Of a stretch of 64,000 bases of DNA, positions 3,326-56,723 are shown one piece after another. The DNA lies in contig JBGPQK010000008.1 in NCBI GenBank assembly GCA_041489005.1, positions 6,602-70,601 on the forward strand, given 5' to 3'. Position numbers and translations under genes: made by a program. This DNA comes from Anaerolineae bacterium (GTDB lineage: Bacteria; Chloroflexota; Anaerolineae; Anaerolineales; Villigracilaceae). The notes under the pieces are model-generated. The model saw only the letters and a list, made by a program, of their open reading frames with translations, was not told the origin of the DNA and did not search any database. Within the stretch, counting starts at the first letter, position 1; the number at the start of each line of letters is the position of its first letter.

Positions 3326-4489
3326 ATGCCCAGCAAAGTTTACTTCGGTACCGCCCGCCAATCCCGCCTCGATGCAAAAGAGACTTTACCGGCAAAACTC
3401 GACCTGATCCTGGAAAACCTTCAAATCCGCCAGCGCGTCAAAGACGAGATGGTGGTCATCAAAATGCACACCGGCAATAACATCGGCTATTCGACCATCC
3501 ACCCGGTCTTCGTGCGGCGCGTCGTACAGGCAGTCAAGGACGGTGGCGGCAAACCCTTCATCGCAGATGTGAATTGGGACGTTGCCGGAGCAGAGACACG
3601 TGGCTATACTCAGGAGACCATCGGCTGCCCGATCTATCCCGCCGCCGGCCCTGACGAGAAATACTTTTACGAGTACGAGAAGCCTTATAAAAGTATCCAA
3701 AAATGGAAATTAGCCGGGATGATCCATGACGCCACGTTTCTCATTAACTTCTCCCACGTTAAAGGACACCCTTCTTGCGGTTTCGGCGCGGCCTTCAAAA
3801 ACCTGGCGCTGGGTTGCATGGCGGGGGAAACCCGAGGCGATATGCACCGTGCTACCCACTTCGATCAATACTGGTTCCCCGAAAAATGCACGGATGCCGA
3901 GACAATCCAAAAAATCGCTGCATCGTGTCCATTTGAAGCCATTGTCGAAGATAAAAAACAGCCCGGCCAGATGCACCTGCATATGGAACAGTGCAACCAG
4001 TGCGGACGATGTCTCAAAGTGGCTCCGCCCGGAAGCCTGAAGATTGACGCATCCAACTTCAACACCTTCCAGGAAGCCTGCGCCATCTCGACCAGCATAA
4101 CACTCTCTACCTTCGACCCAAAGAAGGTTACCCACCTCTCCTTAGCCACGCACATGACCCCGGTCTGCGACTGCTTCGGATTCACCTCCATGCCCATCCT
4201 GCCCGATGTTGGTATCTTCGGGTCCGATGATATCATTGCCATCGAACGCGCCGTGCTGGATGCCACCGCCGGGATGTGTCTTATCGAGGAGAACCTGCCG
4301 CTGGTGATGGAAGTCCACTCCCACGCAGGCCACCCCTTTCAGCAGTTACATGGTCCTCTAAAAGACCCGTACCTGGTAACCGAATACGGAGAAAAACTCG
4401 GTCTCGGAAGCCGCGACTATGAATTGGTGGATATCCTCCCGCTCGAAAAGGTCGAACGCTCCGCCCTGCAATATATATCGGCAAAATAA
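3326..4489 (+). CDS. DUF362-family protein with an inserted 4Fe-4S ferredoxin-type motif
   Basis: The N-terminus (KVYFG...VVIKMHTGN...KPFIADVN) is DUF362-like. It also carries the cysteine motif CNQCGRCLKVAP. Confidence 0.7.
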   Translation: MPSKVYFGTARQSRLDAKETLPAKLDLILENLQIRQRVKDEMVVIKMHTGNNIGYSTIHPVFVRRVVQAVKDGGGKPFIADVNWDVAGAETRGYTQETIGCPIYPAAGPDEKYFYEYEKPYKSIQKWKLAGMIHDATFLINFSHVKGHPSCGFGAAFKNLALGCMAGETRGDMHRATHFDQYWFPEKCTDAETIQKIAASCPFEAIVEDKKQPGQMHLHMEQCNQCGRCLKVAPPGSLKIDASNFNTFQEACAISTSITLSTFDPKKVTHLSLATHMTPVCDCFGFTSMPILPDVGIFGSDDIIAIERAVLDATAGMCLIEENLPLVMEVHSHAGHPFQQLHGPLKDPYLVTEYGEKLGLGSRDYELVDILPLEKVERSALQYISAK

Positions 4490-6125: not shown

Positions 6126-6623
6126 TTGCAAAGAGAGGCAGAGGTCTGCTGGAGTATAATTCAAGCAATGGAACTTCGTCCCCATACTTCCTTCCGTCCC
6201 TACATCGCATCGACGATCGTCCTTTTTATCATTGGCTGGGGGTGCGCAGCGCTCGCCGTCTTTACGCTTACCCCTACCGTCTGGGCACGTTGGTTGCTCT
6301 TCTTCGGTGGCACACTCGGACTCACCAGCCTCGCCCTGCCCGCCACCTGGTTCCTGAACCTGCGTTTTCCCGCCAAGTCGCCCGTCGGGACCGTTGTAAT
6401 TGTCCGGCAAGCCGTCTGGCTCGGTGTGTACGGGGCCTTGCTGACCTGGCTCCAGCAGGAGCGCCTGGTATCCTTGTGGACCGGCCTCGGTCTGGCCGCA
6501 GGCCTGACTGCCATCGAATACCTCATGCGCATGAGAGAGAATGCCCGCTGGCAACCCACCCCGAATTTACCATCAAGTACCATCGTGCCGCCTTCATCGG
6601 ATAATGACCAGTCGAAAGAATGA
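6126..6623 (+). CDS. hypothetical polytopic membrane protein (start uncertain: TTG 6126 or ATG 6168)
   Basis: Four hydrophobic helices (IASTIVLFIIGWGCAALAVF, WLLFFGGTLGLTSLAL and others). The stop overlaps the selA start by 4 nt. No family recognised. Confidence 0.45.
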   Translation: MQREAEVCWSIIQAMELRPHTSFRPYIASTIVLFIIGWGCAALAVFTLTPTVWARWLLFFGGTLGLTSLALPATWFLNLRFPAKSPVGTVVIVRQAVWLGVYGALLTWLQQERLVSLWTGLGLAAGLTAIEYLMRMRENARWQPTPNLPSSTIVPPSSDNDQSKE

Positions 6624-8928: not shown

Positions 8929-10494
8929 ATGAGGATACGCTCAATCAAAGGCCCTTGGGTTATCCTGGCACTGATGGCGGGCGGAGCCATCCTGCGGGTC
9001 GCGCATCTCTTCTCTATTCCCTTCGATGCTCCGTTTCATCTGGGCGGTCTATTCTACGAATTTTCACGCCAAATCATCCAAAATCATTTCGCCCTGCCCG
9101 AAACCATCCCGTATTACTCGCTTGGAGGCATCCCTTTTGCTTACCCACCGCTCGTTTTCTACCTCCAGGCGATCGTGATAGAGTTGTTTGCTCCTCCGCT
9201 TTTCGTGTCCGTCAATCTGTTACCCCCGCTGGTTGCTGCATTTTCGGTGCCCGCCTTCTACTGGATGATCAAAGGGTTCACCGACGACAACCGCCTGAGG
9301 ACTGCGGCGTTGTTCTCCTTCGCGTTGATGCCGAGTGCTTTCGTAAACCAGATCGAAGGCGCCGGGCTGGCTGAAGCATGCGGGACCCTGGTACTGCTTT
9401 TCTACCTGGGTTGGTTGTTTCGCTTCGAAAAGAACTCTCATCCAGCTCCTGCTCTCTGGGCCGGACTCTTCCTCGGGCTGAGTGTCCTTTCCAGCCCAGG
9501 CAGTGCCTATGGCGGCGTGATCATCTCCATCCTTTTCTTCATTAGATTTCTCGGGCAGGACTTTAAAAGGCGTTCATTCAAAAGATCCGCTTGGCTGTTG
9601 CTGACTGGACTGACCGGCCTGATTATCTCCGCACCCTACTGGTTGACGATCATCCTGCACCACGAATTCGGTGGCTTCACCATCGCCTTTCTAACACAAC
9701 AGGATACCTCTTCATTACTCAATCAGATCAGATACATGATCACCTTCAAACCTGCGGACATGATTACTTTCGTGTCTGACGAGGGCATCTATGGTTTCCT
9801 GTTTGACTGGTTGGTCTTCGCCGGGCTGATATGGGCCTTGTTGAACAAACAGGTTTTCCAGGCTGTGATCTTTTTTGCCGTCTGGCTGATTCCGCGCGAA
9901 GGAAGCTGGCTGGTTGCCATTCCAGCCGCCTGGCTGGCAGCCTCAGGAATTGTCCATCTCGTCTGGCCGCTTCTCCAAAAGGCCTTCTCGATCAGCGGCA
10001 TAAACAACAGACCACCGCTGGCTCCTGGGTTGCTGGCAATGGTTCTGGTGCTGCTGGGTCTGGCTAGTGCTGTGAACGCCCTGTACGACATGCAGAATCA
10101 GGCGGAATTGCAGATCAGCGCCGCGACAACTGAGACCCTGCGTCAGGAACGTCAAATCATTCCTCCCGGCGCACACGTACTTATCGCCGGCAACGGCGCC
10201 CTCCGTGAGTGGGCGCCAGCACTGCTGGAACGTCAAGTCTTGAATTGTGAGTTCGGGCTGGAATGGCAGCCGGATGAGTTAAAGCAAGTCTACCTCATCA
10301 ATGACGCACTCCACGCCAACGACCTGGCCGCAGCAATGGCAGCCGTCCAAGGTTACAGCGGGGATACCCGCCTCTGGCTGGTAGGGGATCCAGACCTGGT
10401 CGGAAAACTCGCCGCAGATGCCGGCCCGTCGCTTGAAATCTCCATCCAGGTCCATACACCAGAGGTTGTTTTTGCCATTATTCAAACGAAATAG
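8929..10494 (+). CDS. large polytopic membrane protein, possibly a GT-C-fold glycosyltransferase
   Basis: About 12 predicted TM helices in the first ~370 aa, then a soluble C-terminal domain. The N-terminal layout resembles GT39/ArnT-type enzymes. Function is not established. Confidence 0.5.
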   Translation: MRIRSIKGPWVILALMAGGAILRVAHLFSIPFDAPFHLGGLFYEFSRQIIQNHFALPETIPYYSLGGIPFAYPPLVFYLQAIVIELFAPPLFVSVNLLPPLVAAFSVPAFYWMIKGFTDDNRLRTAALFSFALMPSAFVNQIEGAGLAEACGTLVLLFYLGWLFRFEKNSHPAPALWAGLFLGLSVLSSPGSAYGGVIISILFFIRFLGQDFKRRSFKRSAWLLLTGLTGLIISAPYWLTIILHHEFGGFTIAFLTQQDTSSLLNQIRYMITFKPADMITFVSDEGIYGFLFDWLVFAGLIWALLNKQVFQAVIFFAVWLIPREGSWLVAIPAAWLAASGIVHLVWPLLQKAFSISGINNRPPLAPGLLAMVLVLLGLASAVNALYDMQNQAELQISAATTETLRQERQIIPPGAHVLIAGNGALREWAPALLERQVLNCEFGLEWQPDELKQVYLINDALHANDLAAAMAAVQGYSGDTRLWLVGDPDLVGKLAADAGPSLEISIQVHTPEVVFAIIQTK

Positions 10495-13057: not shown

Positions 13058-13684
13058 TCAGACCTTTTGACCTGACACCTCCAGGATTTCACTTTTGGAG
13101 ATCGGCCCTGCGCGCAAAACCTGCGGCTCTGCTCCAATGCAATCCACCACGGTGGATGGGACTCCGCCCGGCGTCTTGCCGCCGTCGAGGATTAAGGCGA
13201 TCCGTCCACCGAGCTGGGCATAGACTTCCTCCGCCGTGGAGGGGCTTGGTTGACCTGAATGATTGGCAGAAGTGACCGCCATCGGTCCGGCTAAGCGCAG
13301 CAAGGCACGCGTCACCGGGTGGTTCGGGATACGCACACCCACTGTCGGCGTGGCGGAGACGGCCTCAGGAAGTTCTGGGTGTTTTGGTACCACCACGGTC
13401 AAAGGACCGGGCCAAAAACGGGCAGCCAGTTTTAGGGCAATTTCCGGGACTTCAGCGGATACTTTCGCCAGATCATCTACATCACCAATCAAAATCGGAA
13501 TGGCTTTTTCCACCGGGCGATCCTTGGCTGCATAAATGCTTTCTACCGCCGCTCCGTTAAAAGCCAGCGCACCCACACCATAGACCGTGTCGGTTGGAAA
13601 AGCCACTAGCCCACCCAATTGCAGGATTTCGAGGGCGCGCGGCAGGGCAAACGGGTCTTGCACAGATAAAATTACCGTCTTCAT
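13058..13684 (-). CDS. tsaC: L-threonylcarbamoyladenylate synthase (YwlC/TsaC type)
   Basis: FPTDTVYGVGA, GPLTVV and SANHSGQPSP. Overlaps the prmC stop by 4 nt. Confidence 0.85.
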   Translation of the reverse strand: MKTVILSVQDPFALPRALEILQLGGLVAFPTDTVYGVGALAFNGAAVESIYAAKDRPVEKAIPILIGDVDDLAKVSAEVPEIALKLAARFWPGPLTVVVPKHPELPEAVSATPTVGVRIPNHPVTRALLRLAGPMAVTSANHSGQPSPSTAEEVYAQLGGRIALILDGGKTPGGVPSTVVDCIGAEPQVLRAGPISKSEILEVSGQKV

Positions 13685-15936: not shown

Positions 15937-16116
15937 CTCTTCTGCCTCACTTCTTGTCATCAAATATGGACCTGTTTATTATTTTCTAAATGCGCCTTAT
16001 ACATCTTTTTATAACCGTATCCAGCACAACTTTTTCAGCCTGTGGCACCGGTGGATAAGAGCGTCCTTTTGGTGCCTCTAACTTACTTCGTGTTCGTTGT
16101 GCCCTTATTGGTTAAA

Positions 16117-42701: not shown

Positions 42702-42982
42702 TTTCGATGGAGCCCGGTCCTAAATTTATTAGTGTGCTTTGACACCGGAAGTTCAGTTCGAATAAATTGCATGGCTCCACATCCGGGAAAATTTTATTTT
42801 CCTAATACCATCTGACTGCACCTTTCACTGATTTCACTTTGCTGAATCGATTTCCAAGACATTCCCATGTTCACGCAGCCGCGCCCACTGGCAAAGCGAT
42901 CGAACATTAACAATTGACTGAACGTCCCTCCCTACGGAGACCAGCGATCTGAAAAAAAAGATGCCTTTTCAGGCGCCTTCGA

Positions 42983-43171
42983 GTTGCGGGGGCTGGACTC
43001 GAACCAGCGACCTCCAGGTTATGAGCACCAATCTCGCGTCGCACATTACAGACCGACGGGGTGCTGTTTTTGCCTGACCCGGTGGTTTGAGGTAGATAGG
43101 GGCCCGGCGAGCTAAAGTTGGATGATCAGCGAGCGGATTTTAGCACGAACGCAACCAGAACGCAAGTTCTG
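42983..43171 (-). repeat. repeat copy 1: conserved ~145-nt arm plus tRNA-Met(CAU) 3' half
   Basis: The minus strand ends with ...GCTCATAACCTGGAGGTCGCTGGTTCGAGTCCAGCCCCCGCAA. No matching 5' acceptor strand or D-arm is present. By hand alignment the arm differs from copy 3 at about 17 of ~147 positions. Confidence 0.8.
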
Positions 43172-47242: not shown

Positions 47243-47297
47243 TGAGGCTGGAACCAACGACCCAGAGGTTATGAGCTCCAATCTAATTTCGCACATT
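47243..47297 (-). repeat. truncated, degenerate copy of the tRNA-half repeat
   Basis: The minus strand reads GAATGTGCGAAATTAGATTGGAGCTCATAACCTCTGGGTCGTTGGTTCCAGCCTCAC. It aligns to the junction of the arm and the tRNA 3' half in the full copies. Confidence 0.6.
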
Positions 47298-47305
47298 CTT
47301 AAAGG

Positions 47306-47331
47306 AAAAAGTGCCATTTCAGGCACTTTTT
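47306..47331. terminator. symmetric hairpin associated with the repeat unit
   Basis: AAAAAGTGCC-ATTTCA-GGCACTTTTT. Homologous hairpins precede copy 3 (51736-51759) and, in degenerate form, copy 1 (about 42953-42978). Confidence 0.55.
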
Positions 47332-47352
47332 CACTCTCTTTGGGACTAATTT

Positions 47353-47542
47353 AGTTGCGGGGGCTGGACTCGAACCAGCGACCTCCAGGTTATGAGCATC
47401 AATTTTGCGTCGCACATTACAGACCGACGGGTTGCTGATTTTGCCTAACCCGGCGGTTTGAGATAAATTGGGGCCCGGCGAGCTAAAGTTGGGTAATCAG
47501 CGACCGGATTCTAGCACGGAAACAATCAGAACGCAAGTTCTG
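47353..47542 (-). repeat. repeat copy 2: conserved arm plus tRNA-Met(CAU) 3' half
   Basis: Same tRNA 3' half as copy 1. Its arm differs from copy 3 at only about 4 positions by hand alignment. Confidence 0.8.
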
Positions 47543-47748
47543 TTCTCTTTCGTAAAGACTAAAGTGAATTGCAATATTCTTCAACTGCTTTAGAGGATAT
47601 ATACCATACCCGCCCATTCTTGATCGCTTCGAGCCGGCCCCTGTAAGCGCAAGAAGACTCAGGTATCCGGAGTGTATGGTGTTCCCTTCACCGCACCAGA
47701 GAGAGGAATCTACATTGAATCCATCTTGGGTTTTTCGGCTTGAGGAAT

Positions 47749-48227
47749 TCAGGCCTCCACATACATCGTCAGGTTGCGCTCGACTGCCCGTCTAACGAAA
47801 TTGACTAATCGCTCAAACTGTCCCCCGTCCGCTAACGCAAGTACGGTTTAGTATTGACGCCGGTTGACGTGGAATATAGCGGTTGGCGGGTACCCGGCGC
47901 GCATCAAAATCAGGTTTATCACATGGCGCGCCGTCCGTCCATTGCCCTCTACAAAAGGATGGATGGAAACCAGACGGAAGTGCGCCAACGCTGCCAATCC
48001 AACAGGATGTGTGGATATTTCTGATTTCTTGAGCCAACCTCCCCACTCATCCATCTTTCGCGCAACTTCCCACGACTCGGACCATAGATACTGGACCAGG
48101 AGATTAGCACCTGGGTTTTCCGGAATTGTCCTGCCTCGTCATTGTCAATGTTGGTCAGTACAAGTTTGTGGATTTGACGAACATGGAACGGCGTAAATGC
48201 CTCCATCCCCGATGCTAGACTTTCCAC
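47749..48227 (-). pseudogene. Fic-domain protein pseudogene
   Basis: The N-terminal part (FHVRQIHKLVL...GQFRKTQV) is in one frame. The Fic motif HPFVEGNGRTARHV is in another frame. An in-frame TAA follows NRRQY, and a recognisable C-terminus (TVLALADGGQFERLVNFV) comes after it. Confidence 0.7.
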
Positions 48228-48301
48228 CTATTCAAGCGCATCCTTATGATTGATGCAGAATCGCTAAGTTGGAAGAGATAGGTTCAGACCTTGAGTTCGC
48301 A

Positions 48302-48751
48302 TCAACCTGCTTCTACTTCGTCAAGCACAATTACGTTTAATTCGATTACCCGTTTAAGGGTATCGTCGTTTGTTAGAAAAGCATCACAGTCAGCTGCAAG
48401 TGCTGCGGCTGCTTGAAACGCATCAGATAGAGTGAGGTTGTAACGAGCGCGCAGATCCGCAGCTTGACTGGCAATCTGGTCCTCAATAACCACAAAGGTC
48501 ATGTTGTCACTTCTGCTCAACATTCGTATAAAGGATTGAGCAACATCCGGTTTCCCCAACCGGAACGGCAGTACCAGACATTCTGAAAGCGTCACCGGAG
48601 AAGCCACGCCCGCAAGAGTCCCATCATCCAGATGTTCAAATACTACCTGCACTTTTTGCAGGTAGTTCCGATTCTTCTCAACGAAATATATTACTGGTGC
48701 TGTATCGAGAAAAATACGATGAACGTTCTTTAGTTTAGAGGAAATCTTCAT
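48302..48751 (-). CDS. vapC: PIN-domain toxin (VapC family)
   Basis: Acidic quartet contexts FLDTAP, LSEC, LSDAFQ and LTND. Overlaps the upstream antitoxin gene by 4 nt. Confidence 0.85.
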   Translation of the reverse strand: MKISSKLKNVHRIFLDTAPVIYFVEKNRNYLQKVQVVFEHLDDGTLAGVASPVTLSECLVLPFRLGKPDVAQSFIRMLSRSDNMTFVVIEDQIASQAADLRARYNLTLSDAFQAAAALAADCDAFLTNDDTLKRVIELNVIVLDEVEAG

Positions 48752-49005
48752 AAATCATGATTCAACTGACGATCACGTTGAGCAGTGTCTTCACGCCGAG
48801 TACGTGAAATATAGGCCTGGGCATCTTCACCGTAAGCAGGGTAGGGTAGCATCCCACGCAAGTGTCGCCATTTAAGAGGTTTACCGTTTTTAGCAGGTAT
48901 CTCTTGTTTTACACCCTCAATCAGGCGCGACGCCAAGGTCAAACGTTCTGCCGGAGTAAGTCGGGCAGCTTGTTTGAGGACATTTTCGATGGATTGAGCA
49001 GCCAT
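48748..49005 (-). CDS. putative VapB-type antitoxin
   Basis: 85-aa ORF translationally coupled to vapC. The call rests on position and size. Confidence 0.6.
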   Translation of the reverse strand: MAAQSIENVLKQAARLTPAERLTLASRLIEGVKQEIPAKNGKPLKWRHLRGMLPYPAYGEDAQAYISRTRREDTAQRDRQLNHDL

Positions 49006-49094
49006 ATGTTAATCCTTTCGTTTTACTCCAATCAACCAATAACATAACCATTATACACTGTTGCGCTTCAGTATTGACAATAATGGATTGTGGT

Positions 49095-51023
49095 TCAACC
49101 GACTCCTACAATATCATACCCCAAGGCTTTATATCCTTTTCTTCGTTTCTCAAACATCCCTTTTAGGACAGGTACTTGTCCATCTACATAATCATAGATA
49201 AGCACATCAGTCTTCAATTCATATAAACGGTGCAATCGGCCAGCATATTGAGCCAATGTTCCACGCCAAGAAATCGGTAGAGCAAGAAAAAGCGTATCCA
49301 AACGCGCGTCATCAAAACCTTCTCCTAAATAGCGTCCCGTGGCTAGAATCAATCGCTCTTCGTTACTCGAGATCCGTCTTAATTGCTCTTCGATGATCTG
49401 TCGTTGTTTTTTACCCATACCGCCCGACATAACAATAACATTTTTAATTTGTGATTTGAGTTTATCTGCCAATAGCGCCAGATGTTCGCGGCGCTCAGTT
49501 AATAGTACAGGCGAACGTCCGCTATGTACAGCAGTGATCACGTCCTCAATAATCAACGCATTCCGTTCCTCGTTACTCGTCAGAGCGCTGTACAAATCCT
49601 GGATTGCCATAGGTGAATAATTTTCCTCCACGGGAGGCGCGCAAAATTCAGTTCGCCTGATAATGACCTTATGACTGAATGGTCTAGCAGCAGCTTGCTT
49701 TCGATCATCTATCCGATATCTTATTGGCCCACACTGCATAAAGACGATGGGTTGGTGACCATCCTTGCGAGTCACTGTTGCTGAAAGCCCCAAAACATAT
49801 TTGGCTTTGGCTTGTCTCGCCACAAGTTCGAAACTGCTGGCGGAAATATGATGGCACTCATCAAAGATGATCTGACCGTATTCTCCAACAAAATCGCTGA
49901 TCTTCCCCTTCTTCCCGAGGCTTTGGATCATAGCAACATCAACCAGTTTAGTAGGCTTGGTCCGTCCACCACCAATTTGACCGATCTCTTTCTTATCCAG
50001 GTTTAAAAACGCACCTAAGCTGGCAATCCATTGATCGAGAAGCTGTCTGCGATGAACAACCACAAGAGTATTAACTTTACGCTGGGCAATCAAATAACAT
50101 GCGACTACTGTTTTTCCGAAGGCCGTTGATGCCGATAACACGCCGGTATCGAACTGCAGTAATCTATCCGCTACAGATTGTTGTTCGGATCGTAATGAAC
50201 CATTGAAATTTACATCGATGGAGTTGCCTTCAAAACGCTCATCTTTTATCACAACCCTGATTTTTAGCGAATTTAACAGCCCCACCACATCCTCAAGACA
50301 CCCTCTTGGTATTCCAAGGTGATTCGGGAATTCTTCGCAGCAACTGATAATGCGAGGTTTGTTATATGTTGAAAGACGCATTGCTTGCGCCTTGTAAAAT
50401 TCCGGATTCTGAAAAGCAGCCAGTCTGATTAAACGGTTACGGAACGAGGGAGATAACCCCTCCTTCGGAATATACACTTGATTGTTTAAGATCAAGGTAA
50501 TTTCTTCAGGAAATGGTCCCAAGATCGGCGCTTCTGTTGAAGTCCTCGATGGTAACATCTTCCAGGGCTCCGCTTCGTTTTCATCCACTAAAGGCATTCG
50601 AATCCCGGTCAATTCACCTTGTTGTTTTTCAGCTTCTTCGACCACCTGTATGATTCTCGTTTTATCTATTCTTTGAACAGTTGAAAAAAACGCCCATTGA
50701 TCTGGGTATGGCACCAAAGTTTGATCGACAAGAACACTGTTTCCGTGATCACGAGGTTTCTTTTGCAATGGTAAAGCGATCAGGTTACCAAATCCTCCCC
50801 TGGGCAATGTATCCTGACTTGGAAAGAGTCGATCATAAGAATCCAACCCCAATTCAGGTCTGCGACGCATGGTTTCGGTAAGTAAAAAAGTACCCACCTT
50901 CCGAGCCAGAACTGCCGATACAGGTTCCGAGAAGTAAATCCATACGTGACCGCCGTTTCCGGACCTCGAGCGTTCTAACACTGCTGGGATATTGCGCAAA
51001 TCGCAGCTCTCAAGAAAAGCCAA
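49095..51023 (-). CDS. SF2 (DEAD/DEAH, ResIII-type) helicase; distal part of an AEP primase-polymerase/helicase fusion
   Basis: AEP motif II RSRSGNGGHVWIYF. Helicase motifs TAFGKTVVA (I), FDECHH (II), LSAT (III) and QYAGRLHR (VI). The annotated TTG start is in frame with ORF 51036-51554 across a single TAG. Confidence 0.8.
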   Translation of the reverse strand: MAFLESCDLRNIPAVLERSRSGNGGHVWIYFSEPVSAVLARKVGTFLLTETMRRRPELGLDSYDRLFPSQDTLPRGGFGNLIALPLQKKPRDHGNSVLVDQTLVPYPDQWAFFSTVQRIDKTRIIQVVEEAEKQQGELTGIRMPLVDENEAEPWKMLPSRTSTEAPILGPFPEEITLILNNQVYIPKEGLSPSFRNRLIRLAAFQNPEFYKAQAMRLSTYNKPRIISCCEEFPNHLGIPRGCLEDVVGLLNSLKIRVVIKDERFEGNSIDVNFNGSLRSEQQSVADRLLQFDTGVLSASTAFGKTVVACYLIAQRKVNTLVVVHRRQLLDQWIASLGAFLNLDKKEIGQIGGGRTKPTKLVDVAMIQSLGKKGKISDFVGEYGQIIFDECHHISASSFELVARQAKAKYVLGLSATVTRKDGHQPIVFMQCGPIRYRIDDRKQAAARPFSHKVIIRRTEFCAPPVEENYSPMAIQDLYSALTSNEERNALIIEDVITAVHSGRSPVLLTERREHLALLADKLKSQIKNVIVMSGGMGKKQRQIIEEQLRRISSNEERLILATGRYLGEGFDDARLDTLFLALPISWRGTLAQYAGRLHRLYELKTDVLIYDYVDGQVPVLKGMFEKRRKGYKALGYDIVGVG

Positions 51024-51035
51024 AGCATCATCAGA

Positions 51036-51554
51036 CTAGGTGGATTTATCAAAATCAACAGCTAAAAACCAGCAGTTTTCATCAATACACATTGGGTAAA
51101 CACCAATTGTAAAGTCCCGACCAGACCGATCGGTCGGATCAGCTCCTAAAAGATGAGAACGGATTACATCATTGCTAAGTGGAATAAAATCTCGGGCTGA
51201 ACATTCAGCGCAAGTAATCTTTGGCTTGAGACAGACGCCATTGACCCATTCATTTCGGCAAACCGGCTGGTATCCAGATTTTCCCGTCCGAACATTCTCA
51301 AACCTGCGCGGAAATGCATCTTCTCGCCCTCTGAACAAAGCACGGAATAGAGCTATTTTTTCTTCCTGATCGGATTGATTATTGACTGCTACATTCGGCA
51401 ATTGGAGCGCAAGTTGAGCCGGCTGATCAAGCAGAGCCTTTTGTTGCCGAAGCTGCTTTATACGCGCTATCAATTCTGCGCGATGGCTGTCTAAAGCAAG
51501 AAGCTCATTATCGGCTTCGGCTAACAGTCGATCTATTTCAATATACGACATCAT
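51036..51554 (-). CDS. N-terminal part of the AEP primase-polymerase/helicase fusion (coiled coil, Cys cluster, AEP motif I)
   Basis: FRGREDAFPRRFEN...GYQPVCRNEW...C..C and the DxD motif FLAVDFDK. It ends at a TAG that is in frame with 49095-51023. Confidence 0.7.
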   Translation of the reverse strand: MMSYIEIDRLLAEADNELLALDSHRAELIARIKQLRQQKALLDQPAQLALQLPNVAVNNQSDQEEKIALFRALFRGREDAFPRRFENVRTGKSGYQPVCRNEWVNGVCLKPKITCAECSARDFIPLSNDVIRSHLLGADPTDRSGRDFTIGVYPMCIDENCWFLAVDFDKST

Positions 51555-51735
51555 ATCTTTATTCTACTGTGAATCTCTAGAGTCTCAGAAGAAGATAATG
51601 TTATATTGGAGGCATCTCACTGCATGGCTATCTAATCAGATTCTTGATTTCTCCACTTTGTTGTAGCAGGGGAAGGATCCGAAGCAATGAGCCGTTAGTT
51701 ACGAGCCCCTAACCTATTCGTATATTTTTAAAGCT

Positions 51736-51759
51736 AAAAAGTGCCTCAAAAGGCACTTT
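51736..51759. terminator. hairpin associated with repeat copy 3
   Basis: AAAGTGCC-TCAAAA-GGCACTTT, homologous to 47306-47331. Confidence 0.5.
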
Positions 51760-51768
51760 CCATTTGGA

Positions 51769-51951
51769 TGGCTTAGGCTTCAACCTTAGACCTCCGGATT
51801 ATGAGCATCAATTTTGCGTCGCACGTTACAGACCGACGGGTTGCTGATTTTGCCTGACCCGGCGGTTTGAGATAAATTGGGGCCCGGCGAGCTAAAGTTG
51901 GGTAATCAGCGACCGGATTCTAGCACGGAAGCAACCAGAACGCAAGTTCTG
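51769..51951 (-). repeat. repeat copy 3: conserved arm plus a degenerate tRNA-like 3' half
   Basis: The arm is nearly identical to copy 2. The tRNA-like part keeps GCTCATAATCCGGAGGTC, but the T-arm and acceptor are diverged (CTAAGGTTGAAGCCTAAGCC). Confidence 0.75.
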
Positions 51952-51991: not shown

Positions 51992-52240
51992 ATGTTACGA
52001 AAAGTTTTCAGAACAGGCAACAGCACGGTAGTTTCTTTACCGAAGGATGTAATTGATCCGCTGGGCGTTAGAGATGGTTCGGACGTTTCCGTGGAACTGG
52101 ACCGCGAACACCGTCAAATAATTATCCGACCAGTGGATAAGCCAATCGCCGCAGCCGGCGTGGATGAGGATTTCGCCCGCCAGGTGAGCGAGTTCATTGC
52201 CGAATACCGCCCCGCCCTGAATTCTCTGGCGAAGAAATGA
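51992..52240 (+). CDS. AbrB/MazE/SpoVT-fold antitoxin
   Basis: MLRKVFRTGNSTVVSLPKDV is the swapped-hairpin DNA-binding motif. AAGGAG RBS. Overlaps the doc start. Confidence 0.8.
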   Translation: MLRKVFRTGNSTVVSLPKDVIDPLGVRDGSDVSVELDREHRQIIIRPVDKPIAAAGVDEDFARQVSEFIAEYRPALNSLAKK

Positions 52241-52629
52241 AATATCTGACTTCCGAACAGGTATTATTCATTCATGCACGCCTGATCGCTGAAACGGGAG
52301 GCAGCCACGGGGTGCGTGACCTGGTCCGGCTGGAATCGGCGGTAGCCCGCCCGCAGGCCGCGTTTGGCGGCAAAGAATTGTATCCGGATGTGTTCCTGAA
52401 GGCGGCCGCATTGCTGGATTCGCTGATCAACAACCACCCTTTTGTGGACGGCAACAAACGGACCGGGATCACTGTCGCAGCGCTTTTTTTGCAGGCCAAC
52501 GGTCGACAATTGACAGCCAATCCCGCCGAACTCGAAGAATTTACCCTGCAGGCAGCCACTTCTCATCCCGACCTTCCCATTCTTGCCGATTGGCTCCATC
52601 GGCAGAGTCAGAATACGGGGAAAAAATAA
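52237..52629 (+). CDS. doc: death-on-curing (Doc) family toxin, Fic fold
   Basis: HPFVDGNKRTG Doc-type Fic motif, 130 aa. Confidence 0.85.
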   Translation: MKYLTSEQVLFIHARLIAETGGSHGVRDLVRLESAVARPQAAFGGKELYPDVFLKAAALLDSLINNHPFVDGNKRTGITVAALFLQANGRQLTANPAELEEFTLQAATSHPDLPILADWLHRQSQNTGKK

Positions 52630-55386: not shown

Positions 55387-55407
55387 TAGTTCGTTCAATA
55401 AACAAAG
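55387..55407. promoter_or_regulatory. candidate operator motif, copy A (divergent GH31/ROK promoter region)
   Basis: TAGTTCGTTCAATAAACAAAG. The same 21-mer with one mismatch recurs at 56640-56660. Confidence 0.45.
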
Positions 55408-55417
55408 AAATTATATC

Positions 55418-56639: not shown

Positions 56640-56660
56640 TAGTTCGTTCAATATACAAAG
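56640..56660. promoter_or_regulatory. candidate operator motif, copy B (upstream of the ABC binding-protein gene)
   Basis: TAGTTCGTTCAATATACAAAG. A related half, TTGAATAAACCAAAG, lies at 56680-56694. Confidence 0.45.
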
Positions 56661-56723
56661 TAACTAATCACTTGTATAATTGAATAAACCAAAGTCAATC
56701 CAATCAATCAGAAGGAGTAGAAA

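Follow-up and report, generated by a model that had tools for sequence, protein, structure and literature searches.

A probable young pseudogene of a widespread primase-polymerase and XPB-like helicase family in a decaying tRNA-associated islet of an Anaerolineae bacterium

In the genome of an Anaerolineae bacterium, a long gene that would code for a primase-polymerase (PrimPol) joined to a helicase is divided by a single in-frame TAG codon. This raises the question whether the interruption is an error, a decoded codon, a tolerated break or a disabling mutation, and what the intact protein does in the organisms that retain it. The gene lies on the minus strand at 49095..51554 of a 64,000-nt stretch of contig JBGPQK010000008.1 (assembly GCA_041489005.1), hereafter the window, to which all unprefixed coordinates refer. 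The best explanation, to which a probability of about 0.8 may be given, is that the gene is a young pseudogene of a widespread and solitary family, in which an archaeo-eukaryotic primase (AEP) domain of the PrimPol type is fused to an XPB-like helicase of superfamily 2 (SF2). On this explanation a TGG codon has recently become TAG, the gene belongs to a decaying islet at an initiator tRNA-fMet gene and the intact family is likely to be a self-contained module borne by mobile elements.

The interrupted gene and its nonsense codon

The stretch 49095..51554 comprises 820 codons on the minus strand with one internal stop. Its translation reads ...CWFLAVDFDKST*SDDALAFLESC... across a junction at which the DNA is AAA TCC ACC TAG TCT GAT, with the TAG at 51038-51036. 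The two open reading frames (ORFs) of the original prediction, 51554-51036 and 51023-49095 (minus strand), share one frame with this single TAG between them, and its proposal of one 819-codon gene with the junction FLAVDFDKST-TAG-SDDALAFLESC was reproduced in both coordinates and translation. The 5' fragment (51039..51554, minus strand; 172 codons) carries the N-terminal helix or coiled coil, the cysteines Cys99, Cys108, Cys115 and Cys118 and AEP motif I (D167-F-D169), and is also called by databases as a separate 172-aa AEP-TOTE product. The 3' part (49095..51035, minus strand; 646 codons) carries AEP motif II (SGNGGH, residues 198-203), a GFGNLIALPL segment, a middle domain and the helicase motifs GKT, DECH, SAT and QYAGRLHR; beyond the TAG, no further stop or frameshift was found in its translation.

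The homologues are single genes. At least 8000 clusters found in the protein search each represent one ORF of about 815-830 aa that has the AEP and ResIII/DEAD architecture, the top 120 clusters are almost all 809-836 aa long with the same three Pfam domains, and none of the homologues inspected is naturally split into two genes at the junction. Among all the loci fetched, 104 could be aligned with the window at the TAG position (51036..51038, minus strand), and 103 of these have Trp there, the remaining one being a 41%-identical sequence with Tyr; a stop at position 173 was confined to the window and to copies nearly identical with it. Every full-length homologue in alignment A1 reads DFDKSTW at the junction and the four closest relatives have the codon TGG, from which TAG differs by one G>A transition. 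The tryptophan that had been supposed at this point is thus conserved, and the visual impression that the gene is richer in AT than its flanks was borne out by composition, the guanine plus cytosine (GC) content being 44.8% for the gene, 52.8% for the window and 54.7% for the first 42.9 kb of the window. The gene is among the 14 lowest-GC of 308 sliding windows.

Domain searches were performed with the joined 819-aa product, Trp being placed at the stop. The N-terminal half matched the Pfam family AEP-TOTE (PF22548, described there as 'TOTE conflict system, Archaeo-Eukaryotic Primase domain') at residues 65-302 and over positions 1-228 of the 230 of the profile (E-value 2.7e-92, 309 bits against a cutoff of 27), as well as the PADLOC model PrimPol PDLC01465 (E-value 9.7e-90). 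NCBIfam NF040561 (PrimPol_Msp) scored 76 bits, below its equivalog cutoff of 200. A family profile compared with the Protein Data Bank (PDB) found the CRISPR-associated PrimPol structures 7NQD/7NQF (E-value 4.2e-15 for 7NQD, residues 131-309) and the XPBII/Rad25 helicases 6P4F, 5TNU and 2FWR (E-values of 6e-16 and weaker). In the C-terminal half, ResIII (residues 453-595, E-value 1.2e-23, 84 bits), DEAD (38 bits) and Helicase_C (residues 672-777, E-value 4.1e-05, 24.2 bits) all lie above their Pfam cutoffs, and both RecA-like lobes of an SF2 helicase are present, with AFGKT, DECH, SAT and QYAGRLHR invariant in alignment A1. The NCBIfam XPB equivalog NF045503 gave 73.7 bits, below its cutoff of 610.

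An AlphaFold model of an intact homologue that is 92% identical (P0001) is of medium quality, with a predicted local distance difference test (pLDDT) of 68.9 and a predicted template modelling score (pTM) of 0.43. It contains a long N-terminal helix (residues 4-43), an AEP core and two RecA lobes, and in it the Trp opens a helix directly after the beta-strand that bears the DFD metal-binding motif. The best PDB folds for this model in Foldseek were XPB in TFIIH, archaeal XPB and UvsW; the search with the whole model returned helicase matches only and was not informative on the AEP half. By fold and motifs, the helicase half is XPB-like and is not an XPB orthologue. The original prediction had assigned an AEP domain to the N-terminal half, for which a profile search had been asked, a ResIII/DEAD-like helicase to the C-terminal half, and a coiled coil with a Cys cluster to the N-terminus, and all three assignments are upheld by these matches, by the modelled helix and by the near invariance of C99, C108, C115 and C118 across the family. 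Motif I precedes the TAG, while SGNGGH and the invariant D238/D241 follow it; AEP motifs I, II and III are therefore all in the DNA, but split over two ORFs and not on one polypeptide.

The TAG is a genuine and very recent nonsense allele that is still polymorphic at the species level, since the codon recurs across assemblies and a 99.76%-identical contig has TGG. The downstream ORF of 634 aa (P0005) occurs on contigs from four sequencing runs, each assembled independently of the others (Logan contigs L001-L004; SRR29604878, SRR29605724, SRR35961412 and SRR35962388), each of which is 99.9-100% identical to the window and reads ACC TAG TCT. Assembly GCA_041490165.1 (L127), 99.82% identical over 16.5 kb with the gene order unchanged, also has the TAG, as does a gene call (P0132) of the Joint Genome Institute (JGI). 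With the identical codon in so many assemblies, an error of sequencing or assembly in a strain whose gene is intact can be given practically no credence. The 90%-identity cluster of P0005 includes an 819-aa member, P0134, whose contig (L126, JGI 3300047189) is 99.76% identical over 4570 nt including the flanks and retains TGG at codon 173, as expected if the TAG arose by the single transition that had been proposed. The P0134 gene and the window gene differ by 6 nt, namely A80V, a synonymous change at C118, *173W, Y207F, M542V and I611V. The Y207 of the TAG lineage, at a position where F is invariant in 36 homologues, gives a hint of relaxed constraint, the changes being too few for a test. 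It is very improbable, too, that the TAG is decoded, whether by a suppressor tRNA, by pyrrolysine-type recoding or by context read-through, with the full-length protein as the main product. A lone lesion in an otherwise intact ORF is compatible with decoding, which has no direct support, but TAG terminates 10 of the 48 long ORFs of the window at sensible gene ends, no other gene there is split in frame by a TAG, and ARAGORN found neither a tRNA of any kind nor a tmRNA in the window. Moreover, the homologues have Trp here and not a recoded residue, and the 99.76%-identical strain has a plain TGG. Recoding was rejected on the ground that TAG is an ordinary terminator in the window.

As a nonsense codon, the TAG that recently replaced the TGG of Trp173, at the start of the helix following the DFD strand, would stop translation after 172 residues, and the product would comprise AEP motif I together with the coiled coil and the Cys4 cluster. 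For motifs II and III and the whole helicase there would be no ATG of their own and no clear ribosome-binding site. After the TAG, the earliest near-cognate start in frame is a TTG at 51023; the nearest starts, TTG and GTG, are not preceded by an obvious Shine-Dalgarno sequence, and the first in-frame ATG is codon 229. Because the TAG parts motif I (DFD) from motifs II and III, the primase-polymerase activity has most likely been lost in this strain.

The 3' part has nevertheless been considered as a candidate for continued use. In its 645-646 codons the ratio of nonsynonymous to synonymous substitution rates (dN/dS) is 0.10-0.14 in all pairs, and the counts of nonsynonymous and synonymous changes on the terminal branches are alike in broken and intact copies (13:41 for the window and 15:37 for the intact L005). 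Several relatives within the clade of 85-92% identity are damaged in the 5' part only, L007/L008 by CGA>TGA at codon 100 (in a JGI and a Logan assembly) and L014 and L009 by +1 and -1 frameshifts, respectively, near codons 110-120, while P0002 and P0003 have kept the ORF and lost the Cys cluster; in the partial contigs L095, L107 and L108 the 3' part is undamaged. From these data it could be supposed that the break is tolerated or even favoured, with the 3' ORF (partial AEP, middle domain and XPB-like helicase) made from an internal TTG or GTG or with the 172-aa and 642-aa pieces reassembling, which is unlikely. A shedding of the N-terminal Zn/AEP part by the Chloroflexota clade, with retention of the helicase, is equally doubtful. 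The same low standing is given to the broader proposal that a PrimPol-helicase is here turning into a two-piece protein or into a helicase alone, the Zn-cluster/AEP part being repeatedly disabled (codons 100 and 173; Cys loss) and the helicase kept under selection in an autonomous module, not a TOTE component, that travels with transposons, integrative islets and conjugative plasmids. Against a tolerated break, the TGG allele is only 6 nt away, and the window lesion is too young for conservation of the 3' part to be informative. Ranking of the relatives was by bit score, a measure biased towards long intact ORFs, so that 3' lesions would be missed, and the frameshifts of L014 and L009 lie in short A or T runs on contigs with long-read-style names and may be sequencing errors, leaving two solid lesions. 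The break, in addition, removes motif I and leaves the 3' part with poor starts. The clustering of lesions in the 5' fifth was rejected as a sign of selection on the 3' ORF, being weak on three counts (the bit-score bias, homopolymer indels in two of the four cases and a window lesion 6 nt old).

As a separate observation, all four near-invariant Cys (A1 about 99-118) are replaced in the subclade of P0002, P0003 and L014 (85-88% identity), the remainder of the protein being conserved.

The islet at the tRNA-fMet gene

A 4.4-kb islet of 45% GC (about 51777-47353) begins, at its tRNA-proximal end, with the AEP gene; its other contents are vapBC and a Fic pseudogene with a frameshift. The repeat-bounded cassette and the VapBC pair following the gene, both noticed in the original prediction, were recovered, the pair with its antitoxin identified by position only. 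The boundaries are formed by 216-nt direct repeats at 47327-47542 and 51736-51951, of which a third copy lies at 42956-43171, the spacings being 4371 and 4409 nt. Read on the minus strand, the repeat has a conserved arm of about 170 nt, followed by CTCATAACCTGGAGGTCGCTGGTTCGAGTCCAGCCCCCGCAAC and then by a terminator hairpin. Copy 3 (51736..51951, minus strand), at the proximal boundary of the islet, has the arm of about 170 nt and a degenerate tRNA-half-like stretch at 51778-51827. Copy 2 (47327..47542, minus strand), at the distal end, has an arm of the same length, a 45-nt 3' half of tRNA-fMet at 47397-47353 and a hairpin at about 47330-47306; a diverged fragment resembling the tRNA 3' half lies just past it (47248..47297, minus strand), and the Logan contigs break at this copy. 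Copy 1 (42956..43171, minus strand), at the outer end of the next islet, has the arm, a tRNA-fMet 3' half at 43026-42982 and the terminator.

The 45-mer presumably covers the initiator tRNA-fMet from its anticodon loop (CAU) as far as its 3' end, judging by a match to ...CCCCCGCAAC in the Escherichia coli sequence. It flanks the AEP cassette with 100% identity in the relatives L007 and L014, and in L014 ARAGORN identified an intact tRNA-Met(CAT) at 9724-9796 that ends in the same 45-mer directly upstream of the orthologous AEP gene. Direct repeats of the 3' part of a tRNA, as in a tRNA-integrated island, are therefore present at this locus, the intact tRNA being seen in L014 and none within the window. 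Rfam returned nothing for the 216-nt repeats at an E-value of 0.1 or below; together with the ARAGORN result this ruled them out as an RNA gene, the fold z-score of -3.3 being explained by the T-arm and the terminator. The repeats are read as probable attachment-site scars.

The islet would thus have been inserted at the initiator tRNA-fMet gene and would now be one unit in a tandem series of integrase-less islets parted by scars of the tRNA 3' half. The islet itself (47353-51777) showed no integrase-like ORF, the profile scan of the wider 42-64 kb region covering the islet-flanking genes, and L007 and L014 likewise have none in their corresponding islets. Between copies 2 and 1 lies the next islet, with genes for a GH10 glycosidase and a short-chain dehydrogenase (SDR), and in L007 repeat sites of such an array lie at 6249-6451, 9312-9456, 13366-13410 and 15970-16018. 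The cargo of the array in the window and L007 comprises toxin-antitoxin genes, a sigma factor, glycosidases and SDR, and the genes behind the AEP gene vary, being vapBC in the window, L007, L126 and L127, HigB in L005 and AbiE in L014. The region 42956-64000 has 49.1% GC as against 54.7% for the first 42.9 kb. Islets that integrated one after another at a single tRNA gene and then decayed would be expected to leave this pattern, and the array may accordingly be of such origin.

The genes that accompany the AEP gene were annotated as follows. The putative antitoxin gene, vapB-like (48748..49005, minus strand; 85 codons), has no Pfam hit and overlaps the PIN gene by 4 nt; the latter, vapC (48302..48751, minus strand), encodes a PIN-domain toxin (Pfam PIN, E-value 1.1e-13). 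The Fic-domain pseudogene (47848..48227, minus strand) consists of two overlapping ORF pieces in different frames, of which 47848-48054 matches Pfam Fic positions 46-93 of 93 (E-value 1.2e-12) and 47949-48227, lacking a Pfam hit, is inferred to be the N-terminal half; the same Fic fragment is found in the TGG-allele contig L126 at 4092-4298. Outside the islet, beyond copy 3, a MazE/AbrB-type antitoxin (51992-52240) and a Fic/Doc toxin (52237-52629) are encoded on the plus strand (51992..52629; Pfam MazE_antitoxin, E-value 1.9e-10, and Fic, 3e-21). Further along the window, a 27-nt direct repeat TAGTTCGTTCAATAaACAAAGaAAtTA (55387-55413 and 56640-56666, 89% identical) flanks a ROK-family regulator gene; its two copies lie in intergenic regions facing a GH31 gene and a sugar ABC transporter, and may be an operator.

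Distribution of the family and the role of the intact protein

The family is widespread. A scan of one genome per species gave relatives in at least 546 of the 599 matched stretches listed, and the 80 best-matching loci were chosen for a survey of neighbourhoods. Apart from one close relative at 88%, these loci are about 52-65% identical and they belong to Chloroflexota, Desulfobacterota, Acidobacteriota, Planctomycetota, Verrucomicrobiota, Chlamydiota, Pseudomonadota and other phyla. No conserved partner gene was found in the 80 loci by all-against-all clustering of the neighbouring ORFs and by Pfam and PADLOC scans, the largest neighbour clusters being alternative-frame ORFs that overlap the conserved AEP gene itself. 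Among the 148 nearest neighbours, Pfam identified AbiEii in 7, DUF4143/AAA_14 in 4, integrase, SLFN/AlbA_2 with HATPase_c_4 and PIN in 3 each and PIN_3 in 2, and PADLOC concurred with AbiE, PDC-S01 and DrmD/BrxH-like helicases. Within 10 kb of the gene in 21 long loci, integrase ranked first among the families, with 8 of 124 mid-sized ORFs, and in single loci the AEP gene is surrounded by genes for type I restriction-modification, RloB/AAA, GmrSD, AbiE and integrase. Full-length copies occur on 98 plasmids, which are mostly large conjugative plasmids of Alphaproteobacteria, and in none of 50,697 phage genomes.

Public annotation of the family omits the primase-polymerase half, its members being named 'DEAD/DEAH box helicase (family protein)' or 'type III restriction protein res subunit' (for example WP_211398713.1, WP_270092898.1 and MBE3143358.1). 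In two Chloroflexota loci a gene of the HTH_26 family is divergent from the homologue (L010 7595-7840 and L011 7616-7858, 82% identical to each other); it was rejected as a partner, being absent from the window and from every other locus fetched. On two alphaproteobacterial plasmids, Sphingobium pTB1 (L121, 2910-8388) and Agrobacterium pAtA74a_b (L120, 2332-8376), the homologue stands immediately after transposase-TniB-TniQ genes, and in pTB1 there is a 4-nt overlap between the TniQ stop and the start of the homologue, which suggests that the latter may be co-transcribed with a Tn5053/Tn7-type transposition module in this branch. Trios of tyrosine recombinase genes lie right beside the homologue in L125 (8151-11271, flanked by DUF736 genes) and L124 (7414-10849). 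Other plasmid copies are near DUF736, ParB, toxin-antitoxin and zincin-like metallopeptidase genes, the last of which we take to be ArdC-like.

Both options raised by the original prediction, a replicase of a decayed integrative element and a PrimPol-helicase conflict gene, remain live. The intact family is most likely a module made up of one self-sufficient protein, for which mobile elements and defence islands are the carriers. Its XPB-type translocase would track along DNA or open it, and the strand so exposed would serve the PrimPol for synthesis, the whole being directed either against invading DNA or towards the establishment of the carrier element. It is possible, though doubtful, that replication or establishment of the carrier (an integrative plasmid, a satellite or a tycheposon-type element) is its whole task and immunity no part of it, so that the window copy would be the dead replicase of a dead element. 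This would agree with the tRNA attachment site that adjoins the gene in the window, L007 and L014, with integrase as the commonest mid-sized neighbour within 10 kb, and with the position after transposase-TniB-TniQ or beside recombinase trios, or near metallopeptidase, DUF736 and ParB genes, on plasmids. It would also agree with tycheposons, tandem elements with partial tRNAs that have primase/helicase hallmark genes (bioRxiv 10.1101/2020.12.28.424599). However, integrase accounts for only 3 of the 148 nearest neighbours, and the carrier plasmids are of 90-1400 kb, several having a separate MOB-suite replicon type, which makes the gene unlikely to be their replicase. Many neighbours (Abi, restriction-modification, GmrSD, SLFN and toxin-antitoxin genes) are typical of defence islands, the Pfam curators place the domain in a conflict system and the phage genomes hold no full-length copy. 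On balance, we lean towards a self-contained conflict module on mobile elements in preference to a replicase.

Some points weigh against the explanation of the locus as a young pseudogene of such a module. Experimental work on the AEP-XPB-like family was not found in the literature, and the role given to the intact protein is therefore conjecture. The loss of function of the TAG copy is likewise deduced from its sequence, with which a low level of read-through of the TAG may be compatible. The 646 codons of the 3' part, free of a second lesion and with a dN/dS of about 0.13, fit a very young lesion and fit continued use of the 3' ORF equally well. As the islet has no integrase, its mobility would be a matter of its history.

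The window copy is, on the preferred explanation, a fresh pseudogene of a catalogued family, a case that is real but ordinary, and the interest attaches more to the family, a conserved and widespread fusion of a PrimPol to an XPB-like helicase. The locus nevertheless offers a clean example of the fast switch-off of mobile-element or conflict genes with both alleles in public data, and the natural TGG/TAG pair, 6 nt apart, is a ready-made isogenic control for a functional test.

Comparison with known systems

The common form of the PF22548 members has a full-length match to the domain, with AEP, ResIII/DEAD and Helicase_C in about 819 aa, and the window copy differs from it by the nonsense codon. 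PMC12458937, citing Aravind et al. 2022, defines TOTE systems by TPR, OB, TBP and Effector. The neighbours in the window are vapBC, the Fic pseudogene, MazE-Doc and GH31, none of which is of the TPR, cold-shock domain (CSD) or TBP type. TPR, cold-shock/OB and TBP families are also absent from the 25 commonest families among the 148 nearest neighbours in the 80 genomes and among the 124 ORFs within 10 kb in the 21 genomes. The defining TPR, OB/CSD and TBP genes, as given in PMC12458937, thus adjoin neither the window gene nor the 80 surveyed homologues, and by its definition the locus and its relatives are not TOTE systems, with which they share the AEP domain family only.

With the CRISPR-associated PrimPol (7NQD/7NQF) the window protein has a homologous AEP catalytic core, from which it differs by the fusion to an XPB-like helicase and by the N-terminal Cys4 cluster; a span of about 5 kb to each side of the gene yielded no cas calls. 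XPB/Rad25 and archaeal XPBII (6P4F, 5TNU, 2FWR; XPB of TFIIH) are the best match in sequence and fold over residues of about 420-800, with the same SF2 motifs, whereas the window protein has no Bax1 partner and is fused to a PrimPol.

Helicases of superfamily 3 (SF3) or the DnaB type are usual in the replicases of integrative plasmids and satellites. The primase-polymerase and helicase modules of such elements and of tycheposons have in common with the window an AEP-helicase fusion at a tRNA attachment site and a tandem array of partial tRNAs. The window differs from them in that its helicase is of the SF2 XPB-like type and its islet has neither integrase nor excisionase, and elsewhere, too, the AEP gene is usually without a linked integrase. 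The tycheposons of Prochlorococcus are tandem elements parted by partial tRNAs, some of them with primase/helicase modules (bioRxiv 10.1101/2020.12.28.424599), and the islet array of the window parallels them by analogy only. In that limited sense, the array of tRNA-fMet halves would be a tidy non-cyanobacterial example of the growth of an island by serial integration at one tRNA.

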